Below, piece by piece: positions 32,761 to 61,786 of a DNA stretch of 64,000 nucleotides. Position 1 is the first letter of the stretch; every line of letters begins with the position of its first letter. The DNA is from Tubulanus polymorphus. Taxonomy: Eukaryota; Animalia; Nemertea. The position numbers and the translations under genes were made by a program. The DNA is taken from positions 11,124,850-11,188,849 of the forward strand of contig NC_134029.1 in assembly GCF_964204645.1 (NCBI RefSeq), read 5' to 3'. Under the pieces are notes generated by a model. That model made no database searches, was not told where the DNA came from, and was given only the letters and a program-made list of their open reading frames with translations.

Positions 32761-33208
32761 GTCAAAAGCCACCCGTCAACTCGTGAATTTCACGATATAC
32801 TTTTCACGTTTCGGTTCGAGTAGTTCCGTGATTCAGTTTGCATTTATTTTACGATTCCGTGTTTTATCTTTAGATTCTGGGTTTTATGGTTCCATTCCAC
32901 GAAATGAAAACAACGTCAATGCATACATAATAAATAAATGATCCATATAGAATCCTAACACCGGCAGTCTACGAAAACAATTCAGTATGATGAAAAAGAA
33001 AACGCTACTCTGCAGTTCAAGTGGCATAATTCTTGGCCAAGCCCCCAATTTCTGTTATGGCTCCGACCGCAATAAATAGTATTGAAGACTGACCGGCAAA
33101 GTACAGACGTTTGTATGCTTTGTTTAACAGACAGCGAACTGAATTTGAGATTTGACATTTCATATAACTGAGTTACACTAAATCAAATAGTGAGGCTGAA
33201 GGCACATA

Positions 33209-33335
33209 AGTAGTTATATAGGGTCACTTTGGGACCGAGTGAGGAGTGAGGAGCAGTGAGGAGCAATGACGTCATCGCTGACGTCATGGATGACGTCATT
33301 GATTACATCATGTTGGCGGGGAAAACGTGTTTGGG
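33209..33335 (+). repeat. Left TIR of element B (three TGACGTCA sites)
   Basis: Reverse complement of 48890-49017 with few differences. Confidence 0.95.
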
Positions 33336-33489
33336 AATAACGATGATGTTAAAACAATGGGTTTATAATAGCCGAGCCATCGTATCCGATAGAACAATGA
33401 CTTTGTAATTATTTCGTATACACTAAAAAGGGCTATTGATCCGATTAACTGATTTAACACGATTCCGTATGGTTTTTAATTAATTACAA

Positions 33490-34296
<807 letters not shown>

Positions 34297-34918
34297 CGTC
34301 GTAGTCGGTAGTGGGTTAATATTAGGGTTGCACGGTCCACAGCGAGTAATAGAATGAGATAAAAAATCAAATCCTCTAAAAGCGAATTACTAACCCGTAT
34401 AATCTTATCAAACATCTTAAAATTGCCTCAATTAAGTAAATAACCCCCCATCGGTATTACTAAATTACGCCCTATTTTATTTTTCCATCCCAATTAACCC
34501 ATATAATTATAACACCTATTCAAACTATAGCGTCTCGGATGTGTCAAAATAAACCATTAGCCGTCCATTATAACCATATACATTAGGTAAAACAGTATTC
34601 TATTATAAAATAATAGTACGTAGTTATAATCATTTCGTTTATATAGCGATAAAACAGTTATTTCATCGTCTAGAAGGTTAAGAGCTATTCGCAGACGGAA
34701 ATAAGTAACCAAACCTTGTGATATGTCATCGAGTTCTCGTTGACGACAATTATCACTATCTCGGCCATAGTTTCAATCGTAACTAATTCTCCATAGTCAA
34801 TGTCAAATAATGGTAATTTACACTAAATTAGTGTCAACCAATGTCTATTACTATTAATCATATTTTCTGCTTATGAGTATATAGACCCTTGTAAACTAGT
34901 CACTTCATTCGTAAAAAA

Positions 34919-35262
34919 ATGGCTACCCAATCGATAACCATCACGGCGATCGACCAGTTTGACTGCATGGTGTGTTTAGAGACAAAATCGACAACAGTTA
35001 CATGCCCGAATCATCGGTTCGGTTATGTAACAATATATGTGTTAGCTGTTATTCAACACTGGTAAAGATGGCCGGTATACGTAGAAGGCTGACGTGCCCG
35101 TATTGTAGGAGGTTTTGGTTCGCGGGCGGTGCCTTTTTACAAGTCAGGCCGTTCGTAGGACGCGGAATGATGTTCCAACACAGCGATGTAACGGAACTAC
35201 CAAGGCCAGGAGTAGGCGCTCGGCCCACACTAGATGCCCGTGCTGAAGATAGACCCGGAATA

Positions 35263-35327
<65 letters not shown>

Positions 35328-35334
35328 AGAATAG
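34919..35334 (+). pseudogene. RING-finger protein with C-terminal RG repeats (one frameshift)
   Basis: ATG 34919 gives CMVCLE...CPNH; the adjacent frame gives C..ICVSC...CPYCR and (GR)n encoded by (GGTCGT)n. Confidence 0.6.
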
Positions 35335-35498
35335 TAACTTGGTGAACGAAACTAAGAACAAACCAATTAAAACGGCCTTTATCAAGGCCAACCTAAATTT
35401 CTCAGAAAGAGTCAGTGTATGAACCGCCAAGCTCCTCGCTTATATGCTTATATCATCAGTTCTTATAAGGACTTCATAAGTTCTTATAAGGACTCTAC

Positions 35499-35645
35499 AG
35501 AGAGAGAGAGAGAGAGGGAGGGAGGGAGGGAGGGAGGGAGGGAGGGAGGGAGGGAGGGAGGGAGGGAGGGAGGGAGGGAGGGAGGGAGGGAGGGAGGGAG
35601 GGAGGGAGGGAGGGAGGGAGGGAGGGAGGGAGGGAGGGAGGGAGG

Positions 35646-35670
<25 letters not shown>
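35499..35670. repeat. (GA)n/(GGGA)n purine microsatellite
   Basis: Read directly. Confidence 0.97.
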
Positions 35671-35677
<7 letters not shown>

Positions 35678-35705
35678 TTTTTTTATTTATATATTTCACT
35701 ATTTT

Positions 35706-36173
35706 TTATTTTACTAATTTGAAATATTTTACGATGAAATTTTTTACAATATAGTCGTTATCATTAGTTTTATTTGACAATAATTTTTTAATTTCGTCTA
35801 TTTCAAAACCGTGACATAGGTAAATTTGTACAAATATCGCGTAATAACCACATACATCGGATAATACGTTTTGATACATTTTAGTATTATATTTCCAATC
35901 TATACAATTTTCGTCCAGAAAATTTTCTAATATTACATCGTAAGTTCTGGGAAATTGTCCAAAGGAATCGAAAAAGTAACCGATACCAAACTTATTGATA
36001 TAAATGCTTAACCAATGTTCACCCGGTTGATCGTGATAATCGGTATTTACTATAAAACCAGCTGGATAACTATGTATATCGGGTAGTCGGTCGCACGGAA
36101 AAACGCCTAAAAAACACGATCGTAGACACTCGTCTTTTTTCATAAATTCTAAAATCTGATTCGTGTACAACAT
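35706..36173 (-). CDS. Adenain-like cysteine maturation protease
   Basis: VNTD....PGEHW, FFDSFG and YQ.....CG catalytic His/Asp/Cys motifs. Confidence 0.93.
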   Translation of the reverse strand: MLYTNQILEFMKKDECLRSCFLGVFPCDRLPDIHSYPAGFIVNTDYHDQPGEHWLSIYINKFGIGYFFDSFGQFPRTYDVILENFLDENCIDWKYNTKMYQNVLSDVCGYYAIFVQIYLCHGFEIDEIKKLLSNKTNDNDYIVKNFIVKYFKLVK

Positions 36174-36178
36174 AGTTA

Positions 36179-37489
36179 CTAATAATCAATTTCGATATGA
36201 CGTTCTTTAGTTACTTGTAATAATTCGTCGAAAACGGCGTAAACGATTAAATTGACGTTGTGGGGTAAAGCTTCGTCAAATCTCATTTCAATTTTTAACG
36301 AACCCCTTTTAATAAGTGACAAGTGCGGTTGATCACCGTATTCGGGCGATATATTAAAACAACAAATAAAGTTGCCGTTTTTAAAATGTTCTCGTTTAAT
36401 TCCTATACCCTCATTTTTATACAATAGACCCCTAGCTAAATATAAACTATGATACACTTCACATCCATCACCGCGGGAGTCTATAATTAACGGCGAATTT
36501 TGTACGTGATTGTTATCGACACTAACACCTACATAACTCAATGAAAAGTCTCGGAAATCAAAGGGATTTTTTCGTATATTCCCGCTCAACGCATCGTCGT
36601 CTACGAGCGCTAAAACGATAGCCTTTGGAATTTCACCCACAAAAACGGAATCCTTTACGATCGTTCTATGGCCTCTAGGAATATTCAATGAAGTTAATTC
36701 GGTTCTTGAAAAGTAGTATTTAGCCGTGTTTTTTTCTAATGCCTTTGCGTGCGCAACCAAAACCGAGCTATCTAATTCTAGTTTTCGCAAATAAAGTTGA
36801 GCGCTTTCTATTCTTATACGAAAATCAGCGTTTTCCGCGGGAGAAAGTAAAACGAAACTTTCCTTCGATCTATTCAGTTTAATTTGCATATCTGTATTGT
36901 TGATGAAAATTTTATTCATTCTCATTACATCGCAGTATAATCGAGAATAAGCGCAGATTAGTTTACTGTTTTTTGTGTAATTATTTCTTCTAACCAGCCC
37001 GGTATTAGCACCGGCTATCGTCGGGTCGATATGATTTTTCTTGCCAGCCTCATCTTCAGTGTATAATTCGCATTGTAGCCAACTGCTATTTTTAGTTTCG
37101 GAATTATAGTTCAGCATATTTTCCAACTCACATTTAAACGGGTACAATCCGCCGTCGTGCGTAACGACGCGATCATTGAGCGTAATTTGAACGTCGCTAA
37201 ATAAACTGTAGACGCCATTAATCATCGACACGTATTTATCGGGCGCCACATTAGTGCCATCACCGTTGACTATTTTAAATTGTAGTTTCAAATAAGTGAC
37301 GTTTAAATCTAAATATTGTTCTGTTTTCGGTATCCTGAAGACGATAGGTCCCGAATCATTGATCGATGTAGAGGGTTCGTAACTAACGTAACGGCATTCT
37401 TTGTAGTTTATCTGGGTACCGGGGATAGTAAACAAATCCAATTCGGATTTGACACACAGGGGCGAGTCTTTGTGTACTAATAACGACAT
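36179..37489 (-). CDS. Major capsid protein (hexon-like double jelly-roll)
   Basis: KSELDLF..P.TQ, GPI.F.I, SLFS.V, NPF.F, G.L.IE.RF..AL; intact 436 aa. Confidence 0.92.
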   Translation of the reverse strand: MSLLVHKDSPLCVKSELDLFTIPGTQINYKECRYVSYEPSTSINDSGPIVFRIPKTEQYLDLNVTYLKLQFKIVNGDGTNVAPDKYVSMINGVYSLFSDVQITLNDRVVTHDGGLYPFKCELENMLNYNSETKNSSWLQCELYTEDEAGKKNHIDPTIAGANTGLVRRNNYTKNSKLICAYSRLYCDVMRMNKIFINNTDMQIKLNRSKESFVLLSPAENADFRIRIESAQLYLRKLELDSSVLVAHAKALEKNTAKYYFSRTELTSLNIPRGHRTIVKDSVFVGEIPKAIVLALVDDDALSGNIRKNPFDFRDFSLSYVGVSVDNNHVQNSPLIIDSRGDGCEVYHSLYLARGLLYKNEGIGIKREHFKNGNFICCFNISPEYGDQPHLSLIKRGSLKIEMRFDEALPHNVNLIVYAVFDELLQVTKERHIEIDY

Positions 37490-37494
37490 CTTGT

Positions 37495-37902
37495 CTAATA
37501 CGCTTCGCCGCTAACACTTCTCTTTATACGTTTGCCTGTGGAAATAATCCGCTGTTTTCGTTTTCTCTTTTGACCTTTTAATGGTTTTGTACCGGTTCGC
37601 ACTTTACCCCGGATAATACGACCCATTGTTTCTAATCCGCGATCTTTAATGGCTGTGGCAAAATTCTTACCACCTACGACATCGCTCGCAACGTGCAAAC
37701 CCGTTCTTAGTAAATGAGGCACCGCTCGTTTAGCCATATTTTTCAATAGGGGTATCGCCGGTCGAGCGAGACCGCCTAAAACAGAAGCAAATCCAGCACC
37801 GCCTTGTATAGGCGATGATGTGTACACGTCGACTCCGGCACCGCTTTGATTTGCGTAATATCTACAACAGACATCGTGATCTATTTCGCAAATAGCCCTC
37901 AT
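37495..37902 (-). CDS. Basic virion core/membrane-active precursor protein
   Basis: YY..QSGAG, IQGG|AG adenain-type site, amphipathic GFASVLGGLAR helix, Arg/Lys tail. Confidence 0.75.
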   Translation of the reverse strand: MRAICEIDHDVCCRYYANQSGAGVDVYTSSPIQGGAGFASVLGGLARPAIPLLKNMAKRAVPHLLRTGLHVASDVVGGKNFATAIKDRGLETMGRIIRGKVRTGTKPLKGQKRKRKQRIISTGKRIKRSVSGEAY

Positions 37903-38726
37903 ATTAATATATTTTTCTTTTTAAAATGTAAAACAAGATTAACTTTTCCTTTTTTAAAAACAGATATTTTACCCGATTCTCTTCTTATAAAGACTTCTAT
38001 AGTCTGAAAATTACTCCTTTGCACTGGAAAATATTGTAATTTGTTAAACTCTTTTCCAATAACCTTTCCAAAATTTATCGTGTTTAAATGTACCATACGC
38101 AAAAGATTTGCGCTCTGATCGCCGACTAGTTGGGGTTCTATAACATCGCTATATATCATCAAATTATGATAGTCGACGTTTATATCAACACATCTAGACG
38201 CTGTGACTTCGATGTATTTGTAAATAGTTTTGGTACCATTACTATCTACAAATGGTCCATTTTTCTTCGAACCCTGACGAAGGTCGTTAGGTATATCGTT
38301 TACCGGTATACCAGATTTGAAGCCTAAAATCCACGCTATATCGTTCGTAAAAGTTAACGAACACTCGTCGTAAAACTTCACATTAACTTTATGACTTAAT
38401 TCGTCGAAACCTATAATTACTTTATCGTAAAACCACTTGTTGATTTCCGTTTGTATAACGGTGATTAATTGCGCAATAGTGTGATATCGACCCTTCGGTA
38501 TACGTAAGTATTGTTTTCCATGCTCCGGTGACGCCAATTCAAATCGTCCATCTTCGACGTTATCGAAATCTAGCATAAAGTTTATTTGGTGCAAGGCGCA
38601 AACCCATTTACCCTCGAGCGAAATCGATTCTCTCAATCGAACTTTGAAACTATGTTGAATGTTATCGGGGTAAAGATCAACGCTTGCGTCGCTTTTGAGA
38701 TACACGTAAAAATCACTACCAATCAT
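37899..38726 (-). CDS. Minor capsid protein (penton)
   Basis: FYVYL.SD.S...YP.N...F...L...I.L.G.W..AL, IYSD..EPQ.VGD....LLR, LVLHF. Confidence 0.9.
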   Translation of the reverse strand: MIGSDFYVYLKSDASVDLYPDNIQHSFKVRLRESISLEGKWVCALHQINFMLDFDNVEDGRFELASPEHGKQYLRIPKGRYHTIAQLITVIQTEINKWFYDKVIIGFDELSHKVNVKFYDECSLTFTNDIAWILGFKSGIPVNDIPNDLRQGSKKNGPFVDSNGTKTIYKYIEVTASRCVDINVDYHNLMIYSDVIEPQLVGDQSANLLRMVHLNTINFGKVIGKEFNKLQYFPVQRSNFQTIEVFIRRESGKISVFKKGKVNLVLHFKKKNILI

Positions 38727-39805
38727 TTCAGTTTTTTAATATCTTTTGCGTTTACCCAGGAATTAAATTTATCAGCGTAATTATACCACTTCACCAAATA
38801 TTGTTTTCTCGAACCCTTTCCACGGGATTTAATGATCGATTCGACTTTATAAACATCATCCCTTTTATTGACTTTTATCATTTCGTATTCGTAAAAAACG
38901 CCATCTATTTCAACATCTTGTAAATCTTTAATCTTGTATACACACGGTTGGCGATTAATTCTTTTAGTTACAACAAACAACTCTGTACTCCAACCGGGTA
39001 AATAACCTTTTTGGAACTGTCCTTTTAGTTCGCTTATTCTAACAGTATCACCCACTCGAAATTTGAATTTCGCTCTATTTACTATGCGGTGGGGTCCGTA
39101 TAGGTTTTTGAAAACTATGTATTCGTTTAACTGGTTAACGTCTATTGGAGCCATTTTTATACTGCGGTGATATGTATTGTTATATGATCGAACTATATCG
39201 TCCAGTACATCGATGTATCTATACGAATGTCTATGCGAGAATATTTTATACATTTTTGATTTTAATGTACGTATCCATCGTTCGACAATAGCGCATTTTA
39301 CTTCGTTTTTACTTCTGAAAAAACTTATACCCTCGTTTCTGAGAAAATTCTGTGTTTTTGAACCGAGGAACTCGGTCCCGGCGTCAGATTGTATAACGCT
39401 AGGTTTTCTATGTTTAATTATCTTTTTCAATCCTTCCACAACTGTCGAGTTGAATTTATTCAACAAAGGAACGGCGAAACCGTATCTCGATAAAACATCT
39501 ATAGCCGTCAATAGAAACTTGATACCGTCGTTGTGTTTGGAAATATTTGAAACGTCGCACAAATCTATTTGAAACTGTTCGTTCATTCGATAGGATATTG
39601 TTTTATTTCTGGGAAACCTTTTCCTCACTTTGGCGTGTAATGTGTAAACTTCTTGTTCGGATAGCCAATCCTTTATCTCATTAAGCGAAATGTTTTTATT
39701 TTCTTGCCGACATATTCTGTGTAGAGCGTTTGCGCTCGAAAAACTGGCTGGTTTTTCGATACCATAATACTGATTGGCTAGGAATTTTTTCAGCTCCGCC
39801 TTCAT
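38723..39805 (-). CDS. Retroviral-like (rve) integrase with C-terminal chromodomain
   Basis: FQIDLCD, IDVLSRY, QSDAGTEF, AIVERWIRTLK, YLVKW..Y...NSWV. Confidence 0.95.
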   Translation of the reverse strand: MKAELKKFLANQYYGIEKPASFSSANALHRICRQENKNISLNEIKDWLSEQEVYTLHAKVRKRFPRNKTISYRMNEQFQIDLCDVSNISKHNDGIKFLLTAIDVLSRYGFAVPLLNKFNSTVVEGLKKIIKHRKPSVIQSDAGTEFLGSKTQNFLRNEGISFFRSKNEVKCAIVERWIRTLKSKMYKIFSHRHSYRYIDVLDDIVRSYNNTYHRSIKMAPIDVNQLNEYIVFKNLYGPHRIVNRAKFKFRVGDTVRISELKGQFQKGYLPGWSTELFVVTKRINRQPCVYKIKDLQDVEIDGVFYEYEMIKVNKRDDVYKVESIIKSRGKGSRKQYLVKWYNYADKFNSWVNAKDIKKLK

Positions 39806-39974
39806 TGATAACGGTATTTCCGTTACAACACGTGCTCACGCAGTTAATTCGATTGAATTTACAAATAAAACTTGGATCGTCTCGGTCCAAACAACAACAA
39901 CAAAACAATTTTCGCCAATTCATCTTTATTTTTACAATAAAATATTTGTGATAACACGCCTTTTATTAATTTAT

Positions 39975-40502
39975 TCATTTAGAACATAAGATGATGTAGA
40001 ATAAAATTTCTTCGTACGCTTTTTGTAGTTCTTTTGTTTGTTTTGCGCCGGCTAGTATTATGGTTCCGCCATTATGAACAATACATTTAACTCCATTTTC
40101 GCACATATACACTAAACCGGGGAATATTTCTGTGTTATATTCCGCTGTACAACAATAGTTCGAAAATTTCATCAAGTCAATATGCCGACCAGTTCTAACG
40201 ACACCGGTTATTGTTTGTATTTTGTAGTTGTTTAACTTCACGTTGTATCCCATCTTTTGCAGTAAACGCGCAAATTGTCTCGTACTCCGTCGACTATTAG
40301 ATTTACTTTTACACCCAGTAATTACCATCTTTCCATTGCCGAATAATAGACAATTACCTTCTATTTTACGATTCTTCCATATTAACCCGCTAAACTTGGA
40401 AGGGTTGTAAATTACATCGTGCGAGATTCTAGCGACATCGGTAAGATTTAATGAACTATTCAAACACGCCGTAGAGACGATGTTCACCACGTTAACGACC
40501 AT
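39975..40502 (-). CDS. TBP: TATA-binding protein homolog (core only)
   Basis: VNIVST, YNPSKFSGLIW, LLFGNGKMVITG.KS, FARLLQKMGY, YKIQ, YNTEIFPGLVY, IILAGAK: both TBP repeats present. Confidence 0.9.
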   Translation of the reverse strand: MVVNVVNIVSTACLNSSLNLTDVARISHDVIYNPSKFSGLIWKNRKIEGNCLLFGNGKMVITGCKSKSNSRRSTRQFARLLQKMGYNVKLNNYKIQTITGVVRTGRHIDLMKFSNYCCTAEYNTEIFPGLVYMCENGVKCIVHNGGTIILAGAKQTKELQKAYEEILFYIILCSK

Positions 40503-40599
40503 CGTATCAAATGGAAATCAAAACGTGCCCGAACACGTTCAGTTGCGCAATAATACTACGAACAATTGAACAATACATTTTAATTGCATTTTGAAGCCA

Positions 40600-41286
40600 T
40601 TAAAAGCTAAGCCAATTGGTGAAATCGACATTCCTAGCTCGCTTACTACGCAGTCCGGAACCGCGCTGATCTACTTTTGCCTTCTTTTTTACTGGAGACA
40701 ACGACGCATCTAAATCTACGGTAAGTTCGCCTTTGAGCCGTCTCTTTAACATTTTATTATTTATTAGGCTAGTAGGAATATTAAGTTCGTTTATCGCTGA
40801 CATATAATCTTCTAATCCAATATAGCTTTGGTTTAATGTAGTTAATACTAACGAAACGTAAACGAGGTCAGAAATATTGCTTCCAGGAATTAAATTATTC
40901 TTGTAGATTATTTCTCCTTTTTCGTTCCATCTCAAAACGTTTGGATTTGCTGTGAAAAATGTCAATAACGATTTACACTTATTCCGGAATTTAACCGGTA
41001 TACGTTCGACAATTTTTTCAGTCGAATAAGTATTATTAACGACGTTGATATCTTCAATTTTTCGAGGTAGTGATTGTTTATCGTGCTCCGTTTTTTGTAT
41101 AGCTTGCTGCAGCAACAGGTTATATTTTAGATATTTCAAATCATCGGATAGGTTGTTATCGTTTAACGGATTTCCGGTAACTGGTTTTTTAGTTATAGAT
41201 TCATTTCCCTGTAGACTAGCTACGAATGCTTGTACTTGCGGTAACATTGCTTCCGGTAGAATAACCAATTTCTCTACGTTCTTCAT
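40600..41286 (-). CDS. Conserved Polinton protein (PZ-like)
   Basis: WN.KGE......IPGSNI.DL motif; C-terminal basic stretch, QRGSG and terminal W. Confidence 0.75.
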   Translation of the reverse strand: MKNVEKLVILPEAMLPQVQAFVASLQGNESITKKPVTGNPLNDNNLSDDLKYLKYNLLLQQAIQKTEHDKQSLPRKIEDINVVNNTYSTEKIVERIPVKFRNKCKSLLTFFTANPNVLRWNEKGEIIYKNNLIPGSNISDLVYVSLVLTTLNQSYIGLEDYMSAINELNIPTSLINNKMLKRRLKGELTVDLDASLSPVKKKAKVDQRGSGLRSKRARNVDFTNWLSF

Positions 41287-41759
41287 GACGAAACTTTATC
41301 TATTACTTTGTTCGCGGCTTTACTTAAAACATTAGTCACGATAGATTCTAGAATCGGTTTCAACAAGAGAGGTGTCAATATGAATGGCAGAAATCCTCCC
41401 TTTTGAGAAATAACTCTCCTTTTATGTTTAACAGCTATAGATTTATTCGCTAACATACGAATGTATCGTTTATGTTGTTTTAACACCCGTTTCTCTTTGT
41501 CGCTATGTTCTATATTTCCCAGTAAACTGTTTTTAGATATTTCACAAATACAGTTAATTAGTTCTACTGGTGCCGATTCGATCAACGCTTCTCGTTGCTT
41601 TTTCTTACAACTTGCCAACACGTGAAAATGATGAACGTACTTTTTTAACCGATCAACGGATTTATTGTTACGAGGAACCATCTTCCTTTTATAAATAGTA
41701 GACCTTAGCTTTCTTTTAATGGATTTTCTTAGTTTTGTAAACGATGTGGTATACATCAC
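41283..41759 (-). CDS. Basic virion protein (PW / adenovirus pX-like precursor)
   Basis: CICEI..N.L.GNI and QKGGFLP.IL.PLL; the true start may be internal (MVPR). Confidence 0.75.
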   Translation of the reverse strand: MMYTTSFTKLRKSIKRKLRSTIYKRKMVPRNNKSVDRLKKYVHHFHVLASCKKKQREALIESAPVELINCICEISKNSLLGNIEHSDKEKRVLKQHKRYIRMLANKSIAVKHKRRVISQKGGFLPFILTPLLLKPILESIVTNVLSKAANKVIDKVSS

Positions 41760-42366
41760 TGGGAAATATTTTAGTCCTTAGTCGCCATTTATCATCTGTT
41801 TTCGGTTTAAAGTCTAATAACAAATAACCGTGTGGTTCTTCTGTAGCATCTTTGAAAGCCTGTTCTATTTCATTTTTTAGTCCCACTTGTTGAGCTAACA
41901 CCCGAATTTGGTTTCTATCTCGAGCGTTTTTGAATACGGCGATATAATGACTATTTAAACTAATCGTCCTAAAACCTTTCCCTTTAGGAAATAAGTTTTG
42001 AACAATAGTGATAATAGAAATATTTCTATGATGAGCGCCCTTAGTATACAACGCCGCCAAGGTGTCATTACCGCCAACTTCGTTCATCAGATCGTCGACT
42101 ATTATTAAAGTGCGACTACTACCGTTTATTTTTTCGTATAGTTCATCAGAAAATCCTTCGACAAATTGAACATCAAATTTTTCCAATTCTTGAAACATTT
42201 CGGGCTGCGCCTCTCCATAACACCAATAAATTTTTTCCGGTTGTTTTTCTATAAGTTTTTCGGTAATTAGTTTCTTTACAAACCAACTTTTACCGGATGA
42301 TGTAGGTCCGCAGACTAGCATAGTAAATGGATGCACGAGATATCTAGGCCCATCGTATTCTGCCAT
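41716..42366 (-). CDS. A32/FtsK-like genome packaging ATPase
   Basis: Walker A GPTSSGKS, Walker B IIVDD, HHRNIS, RTISLN, PHGYLLLD. Confidence 0.95.
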   Translation of the reverse strand: MAEYDGPRYLVHPFTMLVCGPTSSGKSWFVKKLITEKLIEKQPEKIYWCYGEAQPEMFQELEKFDVQFVEGFSDELYEKINGSSRTLIIVDDLMNEVGGNDTLAALYTKGAHHRNISIITIVQNLFPKGKGFRTISLNSHYIAVFKNARDRNQIRVLAQQVGLKNEIEQAFKDATEEPHGYLLLDFKPKTDDKWRLRTKIFPSDVYHIVYKTKKIH

Positions 42367-42441
42367 CTTAGTGGTTTTAGGGTTTTAGGGTTTTTGATTA
42401 TCCGTAGTAGCCGACTTTTAATAATTTTGAATTTCAAAAAT

Positions 42442-42975
42442 TGATAAAGTTTAGAATTTTACAAAACCAGGTTTGACAATTTTTCAAGTTTTAGAAAATG
42501 TGGTTTGTACATTTTTAATAGGAAAATACTAAGAGGTTTGATAAAATATTCAATTATAAAATTTGTGGTTTGGATATTTTTTAAAGTAACAAAGTTTGTT
42601 TAAAACGAAATCCGTAAAAACTATATCGTAATGATAAAGTTTAGAATTTTACAAAACCCGGTTTGACAATTTTTCAAGTTTTAGAAAATGTGGTTTGTAC
42701 ATTTTTAATAGGAAAATACTAAGAGGTTTGATAAAATATTCAATTATAAAATTTGTGGTTTGGATATTTTTTAAAGTAACAAAGTTTGTTTAAAACGAAA
42801 TCCGTAAAAACTATATCGTAATGATAAAGTTTAGAATTTTACAAAACCCGGTTTGACAATTTTTCAAGTTTTAGAAAATGTGGTTTGTACATTTTTAATA
42901 GGAAAATACTAAGAGGTTTGATAAAATATTCAATTATAAAATTTGTGGTTTGGATATTTTTTTAAAGTAACAAAG
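42442..42975. repeat. 190-bp tandem repeat x2.8 in the divergent ATPase/polB intergenic region
   Basis: Near-identical units start at 42442, 42632 and 42822. Confidence 0.93.
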
Positions 42976-42994
42976 ATGTTCTCTTTTATAGATC

Positions 42995-43620
42995 ATGTAT
43001 TCGTGCAGCATTTGTAACGCTACCTTCGCCTCGAAATTCAATCTCAAACGTCATGAGATGATGCATGAGGGTAAGAAGGGTTTCAAATGTCTGGAGTGCG
43101 GTAAAGCACACGCCAGAAAAGATAATTTAGTGCGGCATATGAAAAATTGTAATAATCGGCAGGTAGCGCAGGATAGAGTGCCACCGATAGCTCAGACTTC
43201 TGACCAACCAGACGATAAGCAACCTATATCAAATGTTCGGTCATCTCCTCAACCATCTACGTCAACCGCTTTCACGGTAAGAATCCTCAGACATATATAT
43301 ATATTATCATGATCATAATATATACGTTATACGTTTTGTATTTATATGTATTTAATTTGTATTTCAGTGTAATAATTGCGGTAAAAGATCGGCTCGAAAA
43401 GATAATCTTAAGCGGCACATGAGATCGTGTAAACCACGACGACCGGTTGCGAAGGAATTCTCATGTTCTAATTGCGCAAGATCTTTTACCGAAATAAACG
43501 ATTTGAAAATACATAGGGAACATTGTAGTTCTACGGCTCAGAAACGACCCAGGGACGATGACGACAATGACCAGCAATCGACACAAAAACGTCTGTGTCA
43601 TAATAATAATAGTCCCGAAA
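42995..43620 (+). CDS. Spliced zinc-finger exons (four C2H2/C2HC fingers), probable polB N-terminus
   Basis: GT-AG intron 43277-43367 (phase 0) creates FT|CNNCGKRSARKDNLKRHMRSC. Confidence 0.75.
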
Positions 43621-43681
43621 AAAAAAAAAAAAAAAAAAATTATTTACATGGTTTTTCAACAATTTTATATTTATTTTACAG

Positions 43682-46600
43682 ACCGGAACGCAGCATAGCC
43701 GTAAATTCAACATGAATACTGAACGGTTCAAGGCTATTGTGATTACCAACAATGACAAGGACGATGATAGTAATAAGGAAGAGGACGATACCGTAACAGC
43801 GCGCGATACCGAAACAATACTCCGCAAGTATTTAAGTAACATCCTAGCGGCAATGAGTGAGATGTTAGACGCCCGGCCAACCGATATGTTGAGGATTTCG
43901 ATAGAACATGAAAATCTTCAAAGAAATATCGAATACTTCTACGTACCTCTAGAAGAAATCACTATCGATTATTTACTCGAGCGTATTGTTAGTGTTCTTC
44001 AGTCTAACGAAGATCTATCTTTGGACGGGCTGATCTTTCATTGTACACTCATTAGGATGCCTCTCGGTGGTGCTAGACAAAAGCGGATAACGACTGACTT
44101 TGAACAGTTCCGAAAAACAAAGAAATCGGTCATCAGTATAAATAATGATGACGATTTATGCCTAGCGAGGGCGCTAGTCGTGGCGAAGGCGCGAGCCGAT
44201 AATGACCCTCGTTATAACATAATTCGTAAATGCGAAAAATCATCGCAACGAGAAGCCGCTCTCGCATTGCACCAGGCGACAGGAGTCCCCACCGGCAAGT
44301 GTGGAATCCCCGAGCTGGACAAAATGGTGAAGGCTAAACTTGACGATTATTATGTTTTAGTGGTGACTGGAGACAATAACGCATACCACGTATTGTACGA
44401 AAACGATAAAAAAATATTAACCCAGGATTCGAATGCGAAGAAAATAATCCTTTTATACACGAATGGCCACTTCGACGTCGTATCGTCAATGGCTGCATTT
44501 ACATGTCGTGTATATTTCTGTTTCTCGTGTAAAAAAGGATATAATACAGCCGAAGCGCATCGTTGTAATGACAAATGTTCCTTATGTCGTGGCAATTGCG
44601 CTCGAGAACAGAGGGGCAATTATTTTTGCAATCGTTGCAATATGTACTATAAATCGGAAGCGTGTTTTGCCAATCATTTAAGACCTTTGGCAACGGGTCA
44701 AAGCCTTTGTAATTCGCGGGCACGGTGTATGCGTTGTGGCTCTATTATTCCCCGATCGAAACTGGATCCTAAATTACACGATTGCGGTAAAAAGTATTGT
44801 TCCTCGTGTAAAGAAAAGCTACCTATAGGCCATCTTTGTTATATTGGGGTGACAAAAGGTCAGGAGCACGTGGTCCCCGAAGGCGATAAAAACACGCATC
44901 AATTAATCAATCCTTATTTAGACGCGAAAAGCGAAGAATTCAAAATTAGAAAATTTATAGCGTTTGATTTCGAAACGACTACTGTGGATTCGAACCACGT
45001 TGTAGTATTAGGTATAGCACACAGAACGTGTCAAATGTGTAAATGGTCAAGGCGTACTCCAGACTCGTCATGCGACCATTGCGGTAAACACGAACACGTG
45101 TTCAAGTCGGATATCGATTTCTGCAAATGGCTGTTTACTGAGGAGAATAAGGGTTCCACTGTTTTTGCGCACAATTTTCAATCGTTTGACGGCTATTTTA
45201 TTTTAAGATATTTGGTTTCGCAAGGCATACTACCGGACATAGTACCAAACGGTGGTAAAATTATGACGATGTCTATCCAACATTTGGATATTAAATTTTT
45301 GGATACTTTGAATTTCCTACCTATGAAACTTGGTAAATTACCGGAAACATTAGGTATTCCGGAATTGAAAAAGGGTTATTTTCCGTACACTTTTTGTACT
45401 GGAAAAAATATGAATTATGTAGGACCGATTCCGGATTTACATTATTATAATCCTGATGGCATGAGTTCCAGCGAGAGGAACGAATTTGTAAAGTGGCATA
45501 CAGAGCGCCGGTCTGAAAATTTCGTTTTTGATATGCAACACGAGTTGATAGGGTATTGTCGGTCCGATGTTGACATATTAATGCAATCGGTCATTAATTT
45601 CCAACATCAATTCTTTGCACTTACTTCAGTCGATCCTTTTAGAAATTCAATTACCATTGCGTCGGCATGCAATCTAGCGTTAAGAACAAATTTCCTAAAA
45701 TCGGAAACAATTGGCTGTTATAGACCCAATGCCAAGTTTTCAAAAATGAGCATCCGTTGGTTAAGATGGCTATCTGAAAATAATAATATTCGAATTCAAC
45801 ATGCGTTGAATGGCGGTGAAGTAACTATTGACCGCTATAAAGTGGATGGTTACCACGCCGAATCAAACACCGTGTATGAATTTCATGGCTGTCTGTACCA
45901 CGGATGCCCTAAATGTTTTAAAAATTCAGATATGCAGTCGCCGGTGCGGTCCGATAAAAAATTTGGTGAACTTTATCAGGCTACGTTAGAAAAGAGTGCA
46001 AAGATTAGGGCCCTTGGATATAATTTGGTGGAATTTTGGGAACACGAATATTGTAACTTGGTGAAAGAAAACCGTGTTTTTGCCGATTTTGTAAAAGAAG
46101 TAGATATTTCTGACCCGTTATTACCGCGTGACGCATTTTTCGGCGGTCGAACTAATGCAATAAAAATCTATCATAAGGCCGAAGATGATGAAAAAATTAA
46201 ATATATTGACATATGTTCGCTATACCCGTACGTTAATAGTCGTTGTAGCTATCCAATAGGTCACCCAACAGTTATAACTGAAAATTTCGGTGATATCAAA
46301 GATTATTACGGGTTGATTAAATGCCGAATTTTACCACCTCGGGGCTTATATTTACCCATCCTTCCATACAGAGCCAATGGCAAATTATCCTTTCCTTTGT
46401 GTCGCTCGTGCGCTGAAGATAGTAATCAACGCGAAAGGTGTCGCCACACGGAAGACGAACGTGCTATTACCGGAACGTGGGTCAGTTTAGAGATCCAAAA
46501 AGCCGTTGAATTGGGATACCGTATTATCGGTATATTCGAAATTTGGAATTGGGAACGTAGCGAAACCGGATTATTTGCAGACTATATAGGAAAATTTCTA

Positions 46601-47458
46601 AAAGTAAAAACCGAAGCTAGCGGGTGGCCATCTCCCGATATGACTCGCGCCAAAAAAGACCAATTTCTATCCGATTATTTCGAGCGCGAGGGTATCCGTC
46701 TCGAAGAAAATAACATAAAGAAGGCGAAGGGCATGCGAACTGTCGCCAAACTATGTTTAAATAGCATGTGGGGTAAACTCGGTCAAAATGAAAACAAAAC
46801 CACTGCTAAATATATTTCAGACCCCGGTGAAATGTACAGCATGCTTTTAGACGATAGTTTGGACATACAAGATTTACTGTTGTGTAACGAAGAGGTGTTA
46901 AGGGTGCACTACAGAAAACGCGACGAATTTGTCGAATCCTCCGGTAAAACTAGCGTCGCCTTAGCCGCGTTCACAACGGCGCATGCTCGACTAATTCTCT
47001 ATAGTTATATGGAGAAACTAGGGGATCGAACCCTTTACACGGATACCGACTCAATCATTTACACCGTTAAACCTGATCAATGGGATCTGCCAACTGGAAA
47101 CTTTTTAGGGGATATGACCGATGAGTTGGCAGATAAATACGGAGATGGTGCCTATATTTCGGAATTCGTTTCGGCCGGTCCGAAAAAACTATGCATTCCG
47201 TGTTTTCAGTCCGCGTGACAATAAATTCTCATCGGAATGCAAAGTGAAAGGAATTAATTTGAATTTTAGAAATAAACAAATAGTCAACTTTAAATCAATG
47301 GTTGATATTATAGTCGGTGAAAAATACGATCATTTGTACGTTTCCATTCCAAACAAGATAAATCGAGACATCAAAAAATGTTCCATATTTAATAGAGACG
47401 AGCGAAAAATATATCGCGCCGTATACACTAAATTAACACGCTTCCCTACGGTTTTTAG
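43682..47458 (+). CDS. polB: Protein-primed DNA polymerase B (OTU-like, Cys-rich, exonuclease, VSR-like insertion); C-terminal frameshifts
   Basis: CLARA..HFD, FDFET, AHN...FDG, VDGY...YEFHGC.YHGC, DICSLYP, KLCLNSMWGK, YTDTDS. An extra A at 47183-88 breaks GPKNY; the end TLPYGF* is at 47458. Confidence 0.95.
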
Positions 47459-48054
47459 ATACACGTTTTATTATTCTCCTCTAGTCACCACTATTTTTTC
47501 GAATTTAAATAATGAATTTTTTTGTACATTTACTATTTATATAGAATATTTATCCTTTACTAATATAATAAAGTTTATCAAATATTATGTTAAATTGAAC
47601 ATCGTTATTCCTTTATTGATATGTTAATTATCATAGTCGCTTTGGATTACACTAAAGGATGGAATTTGATCGTGTAGATAAGGCCAACAATGAGAGGATT
47701 GATTGATAGGCAATTGATGGAATCATGCTACAGACAGTCGACATATCGAAATGACTGAACTTTAAGGGAATGAATGACCGACGAAACAATGACAAAGACA
47801 ATTGACTTCTATTGACACACGTTTATTTTCATTTAATCGTGGATAATAAAGTTAGAAAAACAATACATATTATTAGACCGTTAATTAAACGTATTTATTT
47901 ATTCTTACTGGGAGCGTATGCGGAATATTCTGGAGCATTACGAACTCCGCTAGTGTCCTTTGCGCAGTATGCGCATCTATATTCTTGATTTTGATGACTT
48001 CGTTCGTACCAACACGGTTTCATATCGGATAGTTCGGGTACATCGTCGCTAAAA

Positions 48055-48483
48055 TTAATGTCTTTTAATTTCTTCCACTGAGAGAGATAATTTTACACCT
48101 TTTCTAGAAGGTACGGTTTCGCCTTTCGCATCGCATAGTATATAGAACCGTATATCGATGTATACACGACTATTATGACTAGAACGATAGATTTTAATAA
48201 AGTTCGAACGACCGATAGTCATAACTCCCACATATCCCGCTTGTTGTTTGACTCGCTCAATTTCGTGTTCGATATCGGATTTACAGTAGTCGATATGTAC
48301 CCACTCTTGCAAATCTAACGCGATACCGTTTTTAGTCGGGTATAACTGGTGCTTCCGGTCGCAGCACTCGTATGTCCTGAGATCGATACGTTTTGAACCC
48401 TGCCATGTTTTCACGCACGCGTAAACGAGTTGTCCTAAATAATGAGGATCGGGTTGACCATCTGACGATGTGACGGTTTTCAT
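48055..48483 (-). CDS. Tandem PC4/Sub1-like ssDNA-binding/coactivator protein, probably with upstream exon
   Basis: V..W.G...IDLR.Y......PTKNGI.L...EW and VYIDIR.Y......PSRKGV.L. Candidate intron 48525-48612 adds a basic segment in frame. Confidence 0.8.
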   Translation of the reverse strand: MKTVTSSDGQPDPHYLGQLVYACVKTWQGSKRIDLRTYECCDRKHQLYPTKNGIALDLQEWVHIDYCKSDIEHEIERVKQQAGYVGVMTIGRSNFIKIYRSSHNSRVYIDIRFYILCDAKGETVPSRKGVKLSLSVEEIKRH

Positions 48484-48889
48484 TGACTGAGGCGTATCGA
48501 CGGCGTTATCATTAACGATTGAGTCTATAGAAAATAAAGTTACGAAATTAAGTATTTAGAACATACATACATCATTTTACGAAATATTGTCTCGAAACAG
48601 AAATAGACTTACCGAAATTAAGTTTGAGATGAACCGGTTTCCTTTTCCTATATGCGGGTGAAAGCTTCGCTTTTTTAGGAGAACTACATATTTCTAAACT
48701 ACATGTGCTTCGGCCGCTTGGTGAATCGATGATATCCGCGATTGTCGATGTGAAGAGATCCGATGTTAACCGCCCGAAGTCTCCGAGTTAAATGACGTCT
48801 AAACATGATTTATATCGCGTTTTTATTGTCCACAAATATCAGGCCCGAACACGTTTTATGGCTTCGCTTTATTGTTATCGATATTCTCG

Positions 48890-49017
48890 CCCAAACACGT
48901 TTCCCCCCACCAACATGATGTAATCAATGACGTCATCCATGACGTCAGCGATGACGTCATTGCTCCTCACTGCTCCTCACTGCTCACTCGGTCCCAAAGT
49001 GACCCTATATAACTACT
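48890..49017 (-). repeat. Right TIR of element B
   Basis: Ends GACCCTATATAACTACT, followed by TSD CACATA. Confidence 0.95.
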
Positions 49018-49559
49018 CACATATCAGTACAGAGATTGATAACTAAAAATCATGACACCCACTCCACTTGAAATAGTACCAACTGACGTGCACCAGGGAA
49101 GTGTGATGAGATGGAATACGGACGCTATTGTGCAGCTCTTTTCGAATGTGCGTTGTAATTGCCCTAAAGCCGATAACGGTTCGTCGGCGAGCGCTTTGTT
49201 ACGTAACGCGCCGATATGCGATAACCAGCGAGATCGGGAATCTCCGTAATAATTCAGTTGTTTCCGAATATCGGTTTTTCATCCCATAATAAACTTATAT
49301 AAAAATTCCTCTGTAAACTGGTTAAACTCAACACCTGATTTCCCCTCATCAATTTTAGTCGATCAACTTGTATTCACAATTGTCTTAAATTTAAGTGCCC
49401 CCTAGTTTGTCTCTTAACTGCTTCTCTTTAATCTGTTTTAGCGTGTAACTGTTTCTACGTTAATTTTCCTTTAGTTAGTATCATCTCTGATTACTTGAAT
49501 TAGTCTCTTTGTCTCTGGATTGTATATATCTCTCATAGTTTCTGTAGTATTCATTATTT

Positions 49560-53416: not shown

Positions 53417-53553
53417 CGCTTGTATTATTTGGATATCAAGGAACTGAAACGACTTATCAAAAGCAGCGAGGAATGAAAAAGGATGACGTTGGTCGAAGAA
53501 ATGGAAGAGGATTATAAAATATTAACCAATTTTAATAAAAATACGTATAATAA

Positions 53554-54234
53554 ATGGAACCAGAACAATCACAAGCTATAAATATAAACAATAAGAAATG
53601 TTCTAAATGTAAAATAAATAAACAACTCTCGGAATATTATAATTATAAAACTCAGAAAGATGGTAAGCAAAGTTATTGTAAAATTTGTAGTAAACTAAGT
53701 GACAAACAAAATTATAGAAATAATACCGAAACACGCAAAGATAAAAATAAGCAATGGAAAGAAAATCATTTAGAACATATTAAAGTGTATAATAGAAATT
53801 ATCATAAAGAAAGATATCAAACAGATTTTAATTTTAAAATGAAACAATGTTTGAGATCTAAAGTATCAAAATTATTCAGTAAAGAAAACCACTCAGTTAC
53901 ACTAGCACATTTATTGGATTGTTCAGATAAATTTCTCAAATCATGGATTATATATCAATTCGATGATAAAATGAATATAGATAATTATGGGGATTATTAC
54001 CATATTGATCACGTGTTACCAATATCTAAATTTAACATGAATGATGAATACAATAAAAAACTTATTTGGAATTGGAAAAATTTAAGACCTTTAGAAAAGA
54101 AAGAAAATCAAATCAAATCTAATAAAATAGATTTACAGTTATATTTGAATCAACTGGAAAAAGTAAAAAAATTTATTGAATTATGGAATTCAACACATAA
54201 TGAACAATACGTTGAGTCTTTAATGAGTGGTTAA
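53554..54234 (+). CDS. Zinc-ribbon + HNH endonuclease
   Basis: KKCSKC......Y.....KDG..SYCK.C and HIDHV.P.S.F......NW.NLRPL...EN..KSNK. Confidence 0.85.
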   Translation: MEPEQSQAININNKKCSKCKINKQLSEYYNYKTQKDGKQSYCKICSKLSDKQNYRNNTETRKDKNKQWKENHLEHIKVYNRNYHKERYQTDFNFKMKQCLRSKVSKLFSKENHSVTLAHLLDCSDKFLKSWIIYQFDDKMNIDNYGDYYHIDHVLPISKFNMNDEYNKKLIWNWKNLRPLEKKENQIKSNKIDLQLYLNQLEKVKKFIELWNSTHNEQYVESLMSG

Positions 54235-54483
54235 AGAATAATAGATTTTAAATAAAAAGTATTTAAAAAACAATAACTTCAACTAGCTAGCGAATTCTAT
54301 TATATTTTTAATATTTTCTTTTCAAAAAGAGAATACTTTATATTTTGAATAGATCCGAATAGAAATTCTTTAAATTCAAATAGCTAGTATCAGTAGTCAA
54401 TACTAGAGTTCTTTAACTTTAACTATCTAGTATCATTTGAAGAATATTTATAATATTTTTTTTGCTTTTTTTCTCTAATATAA

Positions 54484-55086
54484 ATGTCAAAGAAATCTAA
54501 TAAGAATAGTATTGATATTGAAAAGACATTAGATGATTTAGGTATTAGTGATAATAAAGATACAGTTGTTTCTAATTCTACTCAAGTTAATAACAATATT
54601 GATTATGAATACTATTTATATTGTAAACACCATCTTGAATTATTAATTGCCGGTGGAAAAACTAAAGAGTTTATTGGTAAAACAATAACTTTTCAAGAAT
54701 TAGATAATATGAATAAAGAAAAAGTAATAAAATATTTTAAGATTTATGAAGAAGCTCGATTAGCTAGAATAAATGATTCTATTTCAGATGGTATTGTCAA
54801 ATGTTATTCTAAGTTATGTAACCAGTTAATACCAATTGATGATGAAAATAAATTATATAATGATTTGAAAAATGACTATTTAGTTATGACTGAATTACAA
54901 AAATGGGTTGGATATGCTTCATTTCAATTAGGATCGGTTATGACATTAATTTCTACTGGTGTCATAACATTTTCGAACATCAAACCTATGGAATATAAAT
55001 CAGGTAAGAACGAAACAGATGTACTACAACCAAACAGTGAAACAGAAAATGAATCAGAACAAAAATTAACTAAAATAAATGAGTGA
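54484..55086 (+). CDS. Hypothetical viral protein
   Basis: Intact 200 aa with T-run + TAAATG start. Confidence 0.75.
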   Translation: MSKKSNKNSIDIEKTLDDLGISDNKDTVVSNSTQVNNNIDYEYYLYCKHHLELLIAGGKTKEFIGKTITFQELDNMNKEKVIKYFKIYEEARLARINDSISDGIVKCYSKLCNQLIPIDDENKLYNDLKNDYLVMTELQKWVGYASFQLGSVMTLISTGVITFSNIKPMEYKSGKNETDVLQPNSETENESEQKLTKINE

Positions 55087-55489
55087 TGGAGTTAAGAAAA
55101 AGGCTAGATCAGAGAAACAAATTAAATGGGCAAGAGAATTAGGTAAAAGATCATCAGAATTAAAAAAAGCTAAGAAAAAGAAATTAACTGATATAAATGA
55201 ATCACAGAAATTATCTGATGGTGCCGTACAGCACCCACACGGTGGTATTGATTCAAATAATAATCCATCTGATTCTTCTAATAGTGGAAGAAATAATTAC
55301 TTATATATTACAATTGGGTTAATCACAATTATTATATTCTCCGGTGTAATATATAAATCAAAATTCAATTCTGATGATAAAGATGATTCCGATGATCGGA
55401 AACTTAGTTATCCGTGTACAGACAATAAACCTATCATACCAGAAAATAAATCAAATGAAAATAAATCTAAAATATTATTAATGGATTAA
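55079..55489 (+). CDS. Basic N-terminus, single-TM protein
   Basis: YLYITIGLITIIIFSGVIY hydrophobic segment; TAAATG start. Confidence 0.7.
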   Translation: MSDGVKKKARSEKQIKWARELGKRSSELKKAKKKKLTDINESQKLSDGAVQHPHGGIDSNNNPSDSSNSGRNNYLYITIGLITIIIFSGVIYKSKFNSDDKDDSDDRKLSYPCTDNKPIIPENKSNENKSKILLMD

Positions 55490-55492
55490 AAT

Positions 55493-56581
55493 ATGATGAA
55501 AAAAGAACAATATTTAAGAGATTTATATTATAATCCAGAAAGTGAAGTTTCATATTCAAGTGTTTCAGAATTATGGAATAAAATTAAATCTGATAAAGAA
55601 AAAATAAAATATAGTGAATTAAAATCATGGTTACAAAATCAACCCACATATCAAATTCATAAAAAGATGGATAAAAAATATTTAACAAGAAAAGTAATGG
55701 TTTCATATATTGACCAACAATGGCAAGCTGATTTAATTGATATGAAAAACTTAGAAGAATATAACAAAGGATATTTTTGGATACTAAATGTTATAGATAT
55801 ATTCAGTAGATACGCATGGAGTATCCCGATTAAAAATAAAACTGGTATAGAAGTTACAAATTCTTTCAAATTAATATTTAAAGAAGCTATCCCAGATAAA
55901 ATACAATTTGATGAAGGTAAAGAATTTTATAACAAACATTTTAAAAAACTATTAACTGATAACGATGTAGAATATTTTTCAACACATTCAGATAAAAAAG
56001 CATCTGTTATAGAAAGATTTAATACAACATTGAAAACTAGAATGTGGAAATATTTCACCGCTAATGAAACATATAAATATATCGATGTGTTAGATGATTT
56101 AGTTAAAGGTTATAATAATTCTAAACATAGTTCTATAAATATGAAACCTATACAAGCTAGAAAAGAAGAAAATTCAGAAATAGTTTGGAATAATTTATAT
56201 GGTGCGTTTGTTACACATGATTTTGGAGAACCTAAATTTAAAATAGGACAACATGTTAGAATTTCTAAATATCGAAAAACATTTTATAAAGGTTATACCC
56301 CTAATTTTACTGAAGAAATATTTAAAATTAAAAAGATAATATTAACTAAACCATTTGTTTATAAATTGTCTGATTTAAAAGATGAAGAAATATTAGGTTA
56401 TTTTTATGAACAAGAATTATCATTAGTACCAAATCCAGATGAAATAGAATACAAAATAGAAAAAGTATTGAAAACAAAAACTCTTAAAGGAAAAAAGTAT
56501 TCTTTGGTGAAATATAAAGGATATGATGATAAATCTAATGAATGGATTTTATCTAGTAAAATTAAAAGAATAAATGAATAA
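55493..56581 (+). CDS. Retroviral-like integrase with C-terminal chromodomain
   Basis: WQADLID, IDIFSRYAW, QFDEGKEF, IERFNTTLK, LVKYKGY....NEW. Confidence 0.95.
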   Translation: MMKKEQYLRDLYYNPESEVSYSSVSELWNKIKSDKEKIKYSELKSWLQNQPTYQIHKKMDKKYLTRKVMVSYIDQQWQADLIDMKNLEEYNKGYFWILNVIDIFSRYAWSIPIKNKTGIEVTNSFKLIFKEAIPDKIQFDEGKEFYNKHFKKLLTDNDVEYFSTHSDKKASVIERFNTTLKTRMWKYFTANETYKYIDVLDDLVKGYNNSKHSSINMKPIQARKEENSEIVWNNLYGAFVTHDFGEPKFKIGQHVRISKYRKTFYKGYTPNFTEEIFKIKKIILTKPFVYKLSDLKDEEILGYFYEQELSLVPNPDEIEYKIEKVLKTKTLKGKKYSLVKYKGYDDKSNEWILSSKIKRINE

Positions 56582-57188: not shown

Positions 57189-57206
57189 AATCCTAATTTG
57201 GAATAT

Positions 57207-57570: not shown

Positions 57571-57594
57571 GATATATAAATAGTTTTATAATAA

Positions 57595-58728: not shown

Positions 58729-58760
58729 TTATTATATATATTTTTATTAAAGTTAAAATT

Positions 58761-61770: not shown

Positions 61771-61786
61771 TTACTTAATAAAAAAA

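Follow-up and report, generated by a model that had tools for sequence, protein, structure and literature searches.

A Maverick/Polinton element in the genome of the nemertean Tubulanus polymorphus carries an intact gene for a two-repeat TATA-binding protein (TBP), which is a conserved gene of these elements and is under purifying selection. The gene occupies positions 39975-40502 on the minus strand of the window, by which is meant the whole 64,000-nucleotide stretch of contig NC_134029.1 that was analyzed, and most packaging and structural genes of the element are preceded by a TATA-like motif, YWWTAWAAG. Judging from these sequence features, the TBP would act as a promoter factor for late genes, reading this box together with host TFIIB and RNA polymerase II (Pol II), a role that we consider somewhat probable.

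An intact TBP core

The TBP gene is a single uninterrupted frame, from ATG to TGA, that encodes 175 amino acids, comprises the core only and is intronless. Two stretches of the protein match the Pfam TBP family (PF00352; E 1.8e-35, with 121 bits where the cut-off is 22.9), and its best relative of solved structure is yeast TBP (E 3.6e-30, residues 4-166). An AlphaFold2 model, for which an 18-sequence alignment served as input, has a mean pLDDT of 96.4 and superimposes on TBP-DNA structures with a TM score of 0.96 and an rmsd of 1.1-1.3 Å. The two repeats and the saddle fold that define the family are thus found by Pfam match and by model, and the profile search and structure prediction suggested in an earlier, sequence-only reading of this DNA confirmed its claim of an intact, intronless two-repeat core. 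Cellular TBP, at 33-34% identity, stands far nearer to the protein than do the viral structure models in BFVD, the best of which reach a TM score of at most 0.80 and an identity of at most 21%.

The element and its surroundings

The element that carries the gene is an adintovirus-type Maverick/Polinton of 15,809 bp (33209-49017), in agreement with the size of about 16 kb given in the sequence-only reading. As that reading had also stated, the TBP gene lies within terminal inverted repeats (TIRs) and a target-site duplication, and is co-oriented with the ATPase, integrase, putative capsid and protease genes. Both termini read AGTAGT, and the inverted arms match over 113 nt at 98%, extending with gaps to about 140 nt. 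The left TIR (33209-33344, plus strand) contains three CRE-type palindromes, TGACGTCA, and a RAACGTGTTY half-site, and the same three CRE-type sites recur in the right TIR (48877-49017, minus strand). The 6-bp duplication CACATA flanks the element at 33203-33208 and 49018-49023. With other Mavericks/Polintons (adintoviruses) the element shares these ends and the genes for PolB, integrase, ATPase, protease and putative capsid proteins; beyond the usual content it has the TBP, a PC4-like ORF, the shared upstream box and a p53-type site.

On the plus strand lie a C2H2 zinc-finger ORF (42995-43312; Pfam) and the protein-primed PolB (43712-47627; PF03175, E 4.7e-52), which is split across two frames near its end, so that the window copy is slightly decayed. 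The block on the minus strand begins with a packaging ATPase of the IVa2/A32/FtsK-like type (41716-42366), followed by a conserved basic ORF of 157 aa (41283-41756, with a likely real start at 41681), which has 58% identity to its counterparts in four related loci, L001-L004, described below. Next comes a 228-aa ORF (40600-41286), also conserved in relatives, for which an Atlas search yielded no credible family (best score 0.84). Downstream of the TBP gene lie ORFx (39696-39923), Cys-rich, 75 aa long and without a Pfam match, and the retroviral-type integrase with a chromodomain (38723-39805; rve, E 3.4e-8). The ORFx counterparts in L002 (3142-3501) and L004 (2594-2947) are 117-119 aa long, and in all three elements ORFx starts 118-127 nt upstream of the integrase and overlaps its beginning out of frame. 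The block continues with a putative minor capsid (penton) protein (37899-38726), assigned from position and conservation and lacking a Pfam match; a 135-aa basic ORF (37495-37902), conserved in relatives and a putative core protein; a putative major capsid protein of 436 aa (36179-37489), assigned from size, position and conservation, with no Pfam or PDB sequence match and a predicted model of pLDDT 38; and an adenovirus-type cysteine protease (35706-36173). ATPase and protease were recognized by matches to PF02456, PF04665 and PF00770. Mavericks/Polintons have a double jelly-roll major capsid protein; the candidate in the window belongs to a 90% cluster in which the member that has a name comes from Tubulanus polymorphus. 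Near the right TIR, a PC4-like coactivator/ssDNA-binding ORF with two PC4 stretches (48055-48483, minus strand; Pfam) is a second Pol II-related factor of the element.

Several other features of the region were observed. Between the divergent ATPase and zinc-finger starts, at 42442-42975, an AT-rich 190-bp unit is present in 2.8 tandem copies at 99% identity; in L002 and L003 the gap at this place measures only about 215 nt. Three Cys-rich, RING-like ORFs occupy the left end (33493-35334), two of which run into microsatellites. Outside the element, a second Polinton family is represented by two incomplete, AT-rich (22-25% GC) copies at 1-13200 and 53500-64000 of the window; they are 90-95% identical to each other and broken by frameshifts, the left one contains a reverse-transcriptase-like insert at about 3400-5450, and a TBP profile search found no TBP in either. 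An intact-looking, 561-aa DDE transposase of the Tc5/pogo type is encoded at 23556-25241 (plus strand).

Conservation, synteny and selection

A single metagenome scan for relatives of the TBP returned 23 loci. Four of these (L001-L004) are strong and represent two distinct elements, with TBPs 45-47% identical to the window copy. All four have the gene order ATPase-157aa-228aa-TBP-integrase seen in the window, and the shared order extends to the capsid genes in the three contigs that are long enough and to the protease in two. The remaining 19 loci, in seven of which ORFs were examined, have weaker TBP matches and, except for L023, no match to the genes of the element. On L023, a 2.5-kb contig, the region 217-2541 contains a capsid-like gene, 25% identical to the putative major capsid protein, that faces a different and more divergent TBP (Pfam E 6e-14); the ORF after this TBP has a zinc ribbon of the TFIIB type (E 1.3e-5, which is below the cut-off), and this contig may represent a Polinton-like element with its own TBP-TFIIB pair. 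For the TBP, the capsid and the ATPase alike, scans of the viral_contigs and genome_contigs collections returned no relative.

Between L002 and L004, the TBP gene has a dN of 0.071 and a dS of 0.427 over 176 codons (Nei-Gojobori), giving the dN/dS ratio that the sequence-only reading had asked for, 0.17, which falls within the range of seven neighboring genes (0.07-0.31); in comparisons of the relatives with the window copy, synonymous sites are saturated. This value shows that the gene is under purifying selection. With four syntenic loci, this ratio and the clade described below, the possibility that the gene exists only in this copy and is decaying neutrally fails, and the TBP is a conserved gene of these elements and not a one-off capture or passenger. 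In sequencing run X5, which comes from another individual and a different study (about 12% of reads), the TBP gene was covered at a depth of about 23-26, similar to that of its neighbors. In this run 6 of 27 reads lack one base at 40020, close to where the gene ends, so some genomic TBP copies are broken.

A clade of core-only TBPs

Profile searches returned 351 near-complete TBP cores, 70 of which are without Asn at the column of yeast N159. One of these, P0070, was removed because it is otherwise a canonical TBP, leaving 69 sequences, including the query, nearly all of 150-200 aa. These core-only proteins group together in a FastTree phylogeny (support 0.72), and 25 sampled members form one side of a branch supported at 99/93 in an IQ-TREE analysis of 70 rows (LG+C20+F+G4), the opposite side of which comprises metazoan, other eukaryotic and archaeal TBPs. 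Because the clade was first chosen by the N159 change, the tree is an independent check of it. Long branches may attract other short, divergent TBPs to the clade. The window TBP has 30-37% identity per lobe to cellular TBPs and is not nested among those of metazoans. Of the phylogeny proposed in the sequence-only reading, separation from these cellular TBPs was obtained, and TRF2/TBPL1 and giant-virus TBPs lie outside the scope of the trees. Nine short, divergent, unnamed TBPs that retain N159 (P0006, P0217, P0222, P0234, P0241, P0258, P0262, P0266 and P0277) branch between the clade and cellular TBP.

The named members of the clade are a multi-copy 'TBP-2-like' set in Crassostrea virginica (seven RefSeq accessions) and short contigs in bivalve-symbiont assemblies, a pattern that fits mobile elements of marine invertebrates; genomic context was read at four loci, and a Maverick origin would be expected for the other sequences among the 69. 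Clade proteins annotated as host 'TBP 2-like' (eastern oyster) or as bacterial include P0304, P0391-P0396, P0307 and P0312, and some of the bivalve annotations and bacterial-symbiont entries are likely of mobile-element origin.

Partner surfaces and the DNA-reading face

Residues are given in yeast TBP numbering, as mapped on an alignment with yeast TBP, and counts refer to the 69 clade sequences. We take F99, F116, F190 and F207 to be the intercalating Phe residues, N69 and N159 to be the paired Asn residues, and E93 to be a TFIIA contact. The window copy keeps three of the four Phe (F37, F54 and F127), has H143 in place of F207 and T97 in place of N159, and has N123-T124-E125 where yeast has E186-P187-E188, so that it departs from canonical cellular TBP, with its four Phe, paired Asn and both TFIIB-stirrup acids, exactly at the residues that the sequence-only reading had picked out by eye.

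Not all of these changes extend to the family. Thr replaces N159 in 68/69 sequences, a count that is circular because this column was used to select the clade; the His at F207 holds for the window copy and fails as a family trait, since this column contains F in 41, H in 20 and other residues in eight, the 28/69 without Phe including H, T, Y, L and Q. Elsewhere on the C-repeat face, V161 is S or T in 69/69, V203 is replaced by H, N, K or S, and L205 by T, S, I or C. The N-repeat is well kept (N69 in 64/69, V71 in 65/69, F99 in 62/69, L114 in 60/69 and F116 in 67/69), as are F190 of the C-repeat (65/69), the helix-2 basic patch (R137 in 68/69, R141 in 69/69 and K145 as K or R in 64/69) and the stirrup residues E188 (68/69) and E186 (55/69). 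At the E93 equivalent, Glu is not among the four commonest residues, and M104 is Trp in 60/69. The six members of the window copy's sub-clade all have N or H at E186; in this sub-clade the residue at V203 is mostly K, that at F207 H and that at T215 A or S.

The C-repeat of TBP reads the TATA box's 5' half, and changes at V203, L205 and I194 alter specificity at base 2 in yeast (PMC1636458). E186 and E188 are a signature for TFIIB, and TFIIA, TAF1, Brf1 and Mot1 make use of the basic patch of the N-lobe; both were reported to have diverged in viral TBPs (PMC7221094). In the clade, it looks as if the partner surfaces were largely kept and the part of the DNA face that reads the 5' half of TATA was remodeled. 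With the surfaces for host partners largely preserved, the changes do not imply that TFIIB binding is lost. That changes on one half of the DNA face are fixed across the clade points to a new preference.

A candidate late box upstream of packaging and structural genes

The box, mostly CATTAAAAG or CTTTAAAAG, stands before the majority of the packaging and structural genes, both in the window element and in L002 and L004, two loci that are related to each other. At the head of the block, TATTAAAAG (42415-42423; this and all following boxes on the minus strand) lies 57 nt before the ATPase start. Two boxes precede the second Met of the 157-aa ORF: CATTAAAAG (41713-41721) by 40 nt, and TTATAAAAG (41686-41694), a canonical TATA sequence whose counterpart in L002 and L004 is CTTTAAAAG, by 13 nt. 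The box TAATAAAAG (39960-39968) is located 45 nt before ORFx and 163 nt before the integrase and is CATTAWAAG in L002 and L004. Within the integrase gene, CAATAAAAG (38862-38870) stands 144 nt before the putative minor capsid gene and could be a poly(A) signal. The 135-aa ORF is preceded at 90 nt by CTTTATAAG (37984-37992), identical and at the same distance in L002 and L004, the putative major capsid gene at 94 nt by CATTAAAAG (37575-37583), and the protease at 141 nt by TATTAAAAG (36306-36314), which is not kept there in L002 or L004.

Because the motif was picked by eye and post hoc, from a comparison of upstream regions in the window, its statistics in the window are partly circular: in the structural block, each of the eight sense matches to WWTAWAAG is followed by a start within 150 nt (shuffle means 0.9 inside and 3.7 outside), and among 63 motifs of the same shape with at least six matches, two behave in this way, the box and its overlapping one-base shift. 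In the relatives, 7/7 matches to YWWTAWAAG in L002 and 6/7 in L004 are upstream, versus 0.3-0.4 by shuffle. Three boxes that fall in coding sequence are kept at orthologous in-frame codons, with a joint probability, from codon usage and given the amino acids, of 0.002-0.004. The box is absent before the TBP and 228-aa genes in the window element, L002 and L004, and precedes 0/5 non-structural genes. It is found before 1/15 genes of the flanking, more AT-rich Polintons, which as controls represent a distant, partly broken family and not close TBP-less relatives. In the structural block, canonical TATAWAWR shows no enrichment (three in the window versus a shuffle mean of 5.2, and five in L002 versus 3.6).

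In either register of the box, its deviation from TATAAAAG falls in the 5' half, matching the remodeled side of the protein. One register reads TATT or CATT and resembles the herpesvirus late motif TATTWAA, and TATTAAA occurs literally in two window boxes; late promoters with this motif are read by the herpesvirus protein ORF24 (PMC12529657). Two window boxes contain AATAAA and may be poly(A) signals.

Candidate control signals of the TBP gene

A p53/p63-type full site, made up of two decamers without a spacer and with CGTG-type cores, lies at 40521-40540, 19 nt before the TBP start. It has no flank mismatch, against shuffle means of 0.00 sites at zero mismatches and 0.04 at two or fewer. A p53-type site also precedes TBP in L002 (two mismatches, CATG cores) and in L003/L004 (three mismatches); L002 has one further site of this type, and the window element and L003/L004 have none besides. 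A p53-family or similar factor would be its binder, and the 19 nt that separate site and ATG in the window are tight for an upstream activator. Beside the site, at 40543, is a C/EBP-type palindrome, TTGCGCAA, in place of which the relatives have repeated TGATTGG (CCAAT-type) sequences before the p53-type site of TBP (L002:2290-2440; L003:3630-3800). At the TBP stop codon, an AATAAA (39970-39975, minus strand), found in the same place in L002 and L004, is likely the poly(A) signal of TBP. Given its own promoter-like site and this AATAAA, the TBP gene seems to form a separate unit within the block.

Proposed mechanism and alternative explanations

With fold, conservation, synteny, selection, the placement of the box, its absence before TBP and non-structural genes and the p53-type site as observations, we infer binding, timing and partners as follows. 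A host p53-family or similar factor would activate the TBP gene as a unit with a promoter and a poly(A) signal of its own. The viral TBP would then bind the box, its nearly intact N-repeat reading the usual A-rich 3' half and changes at N159, V161, V203, L205, F207 and T215 accepting a non-TATA 5' half (C/T-A/T-T-T). Finally, the E188 equivalent and the helix-2 basic patch would connect TBP to the host initiation machinery, which is invoked because no TFIIB or RNA polymerase gene was found in the element; for TFIIB, no Pfam match was present among the 16 ORFs scanned or in ORFx. The sequence-only reading had supposed that a divergent viral TBP either redirects Pol II to altered core promoters or acts as a decoy. 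A non-TATA box before the structural genes, together with changes of the TBP on the matching half of its DNA face, lends redirection real though indirect support, and the decoy is less favored.

Several observations sit uneasily with the late-factor model: box-to-ATG spacing varies from 13 to 163 nt, the 228-aa gene is boxless, the protease box is unconserved, one window box is the canonical TATAAAAG, two contain AATAAA, and the first TFIIB glutamate, E186, is N or H in the window sub-clade. Host TBP may also read such near-TATA boxes, a point on which an unlikely though serious alternative turns, namely that the protein is a general booster of relaxed specificity, which would increase TBP supply or escape host regulation at all promoters of the element, the boxes being weak TATA variants that host TBP reads as well. 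That the box departs from TATAAAAG at one or two positions, or at none, is consistent with this, as is the yeast mutant TBPm3, which is altered at the same positions and has relaxed rather than switched specificity (PMC1636458). Restriction of the box to structural genes, the lack of enrichment of canonical TATAWAWR among them and changes fixed throughout the clade on one half of the DNA face argue against it. We find it improbable that the protein is a decoy or dominant-negative factor, binding host TFIIB, TFIIA, TAF1 or Mot1 and dampening host transcription while reading no viral promoters. The partner surfaces are indeed better kept than the C-repeat DNA face, with R137, R141, K145 and E188 nearly invariant and F207 often replaced; however, three intercalating Phe and the base contacts of the N-repeat are kept, the C-repeat changes are conserved and not random, and the box is left unexplained. 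A small element that lacks its own RNA polymerase would, moreover, need the same host factors.

Still less probable is a non-transcriptional function, in which the protein would bind AT-rich DNA of the element and bend it at replication or packaging, or target the integrase. The position of TBP inside the packaging/integrase block and the AT-rich array at 42442-42975 would suit such a function, in which the kept TFIIB glutamate and basic patch would have no role, and TBP has a promoter-like site and poly(A) signal of its own and no box. Least probable, and already largely refuted, is a recent retrocopy of host TBP or TRF2 in neutral decay. The intronless frame and the one-base loss in some X5 reads are what such a copy might show, but the low per-lobe identity to cellular TBPs, the position outside the metazoan TBPs, the dN/dS ratio and the shared synteny all contradict it, and N-lobe F116, which is Trp in TBPL1/TRF2 (PMC7221094), is kept.

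Relation to known viral and cellular TBPs

Giant viruses and herpesviruses are known to encode TBPs of their own. Like the mechanism proposed here, KSHV ORF24, a TBP mimic of the beta/gammaherpesvirus type, combines a viral TBP fold, a near-TATA late motif and host Pol II (PMC12529657). However, ORF24 is a large protein of several domains, and as part of a viral complex of six proteins it makes direct contact with Pol II (PMC12529657), whereas the window TBP is a bare saddle without the Pol II-binding N-terminal domain or viral activator complex of ORF24/UL87-type proteins. It is close to cellular TBP in structure and keeps the TFIIB-contact glutamate, and no homology to ORF24 beyond the fold is claimed. 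The TBP homologues of Nucleocytoviricota and mirusviruses share the two-lobe fold; they were reported to lack the host-adapter and N-lobe regulator signatures and are often paired with a viral TFIIB (PMC7221094). In the window clade, in contrast, E188 and the basic patch are kept, and no TFIIB gene was found in the element. Thus, the clade looks like the reverse of the orthogonal TBP-TFIIB systems of giant viruses, with partner surfaces largely kept and half of the DNA face rewired. With cellular TBP, TBPL2/TRF3 and TBPL1/TRF2, the window TBP shares the fold, three of four Phe, N69, E188 and the helix-2 basic patch. It differs from cellular TBP in the absence of an N-terminal extension, in the remodeled C-repeat DNA face and in the Trp at M104 common in its clade. 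In TRF2, the Phe residues that contact TATA are not conserved (PMC4422821), a pattern unlike that of the window clade, and the Trp that marks TRF2/TBPL1 at F116 is here a Phe (F54).

A TBP-like gene has been indicated before in a Polinton-related, midsize linear dsDNA virus: a 'TBP' label appears on the map of a MELD virus with an adintovirus-like PolB, in the Fig. 5 legend and the preprint of Starrett et al. (2021; PMC8502044). In the text of that study available in part, TBP occurs only as an abbreviation in this legend, with no analysis of family, residues, promoters or selection; the text of Supplementary Fig. S2, with the animal adintovirus maps, has no TBP label (PMC8502044). Beyond this label, no study of a Polinton TBP family, the box or the p53 site was found in a literature search that covered subscription papers and Repbase thinly. 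The existing label and the occurrence of the gene in a large family, rather than in one element, make the finding less novel than the sequence-only reading suggested.

Implications

It has long been asked how integrated Mavericks control the timing of their capsid genes and whether virions are still made. The TBP, its candidate box and a candidate inducing site provide a concrete model, testable with one small protein and a 9-bp motif. We regard it as possible, if doubtful, that a widespread animal Maverick lineage evolved, independently of herpesviruses, a two-step cascade in which a host p53-family signal induces a single viral TBP of about 170 aa, which then, reading a TATT-like late box through its remodeled C-repeat, brings unmodified host TFIIB and Pol II to the virion genes. 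The clade is in addition a source of dozens of naturally occurring TBP variants, with host-partner surfaces kept and the DNA face changed, which bear on how TATA specificity is encoded. If the two-step cascade is true, a 16-kb genome would contain a TBP of naturally altered specificity together with a provirus switch that can be induced.
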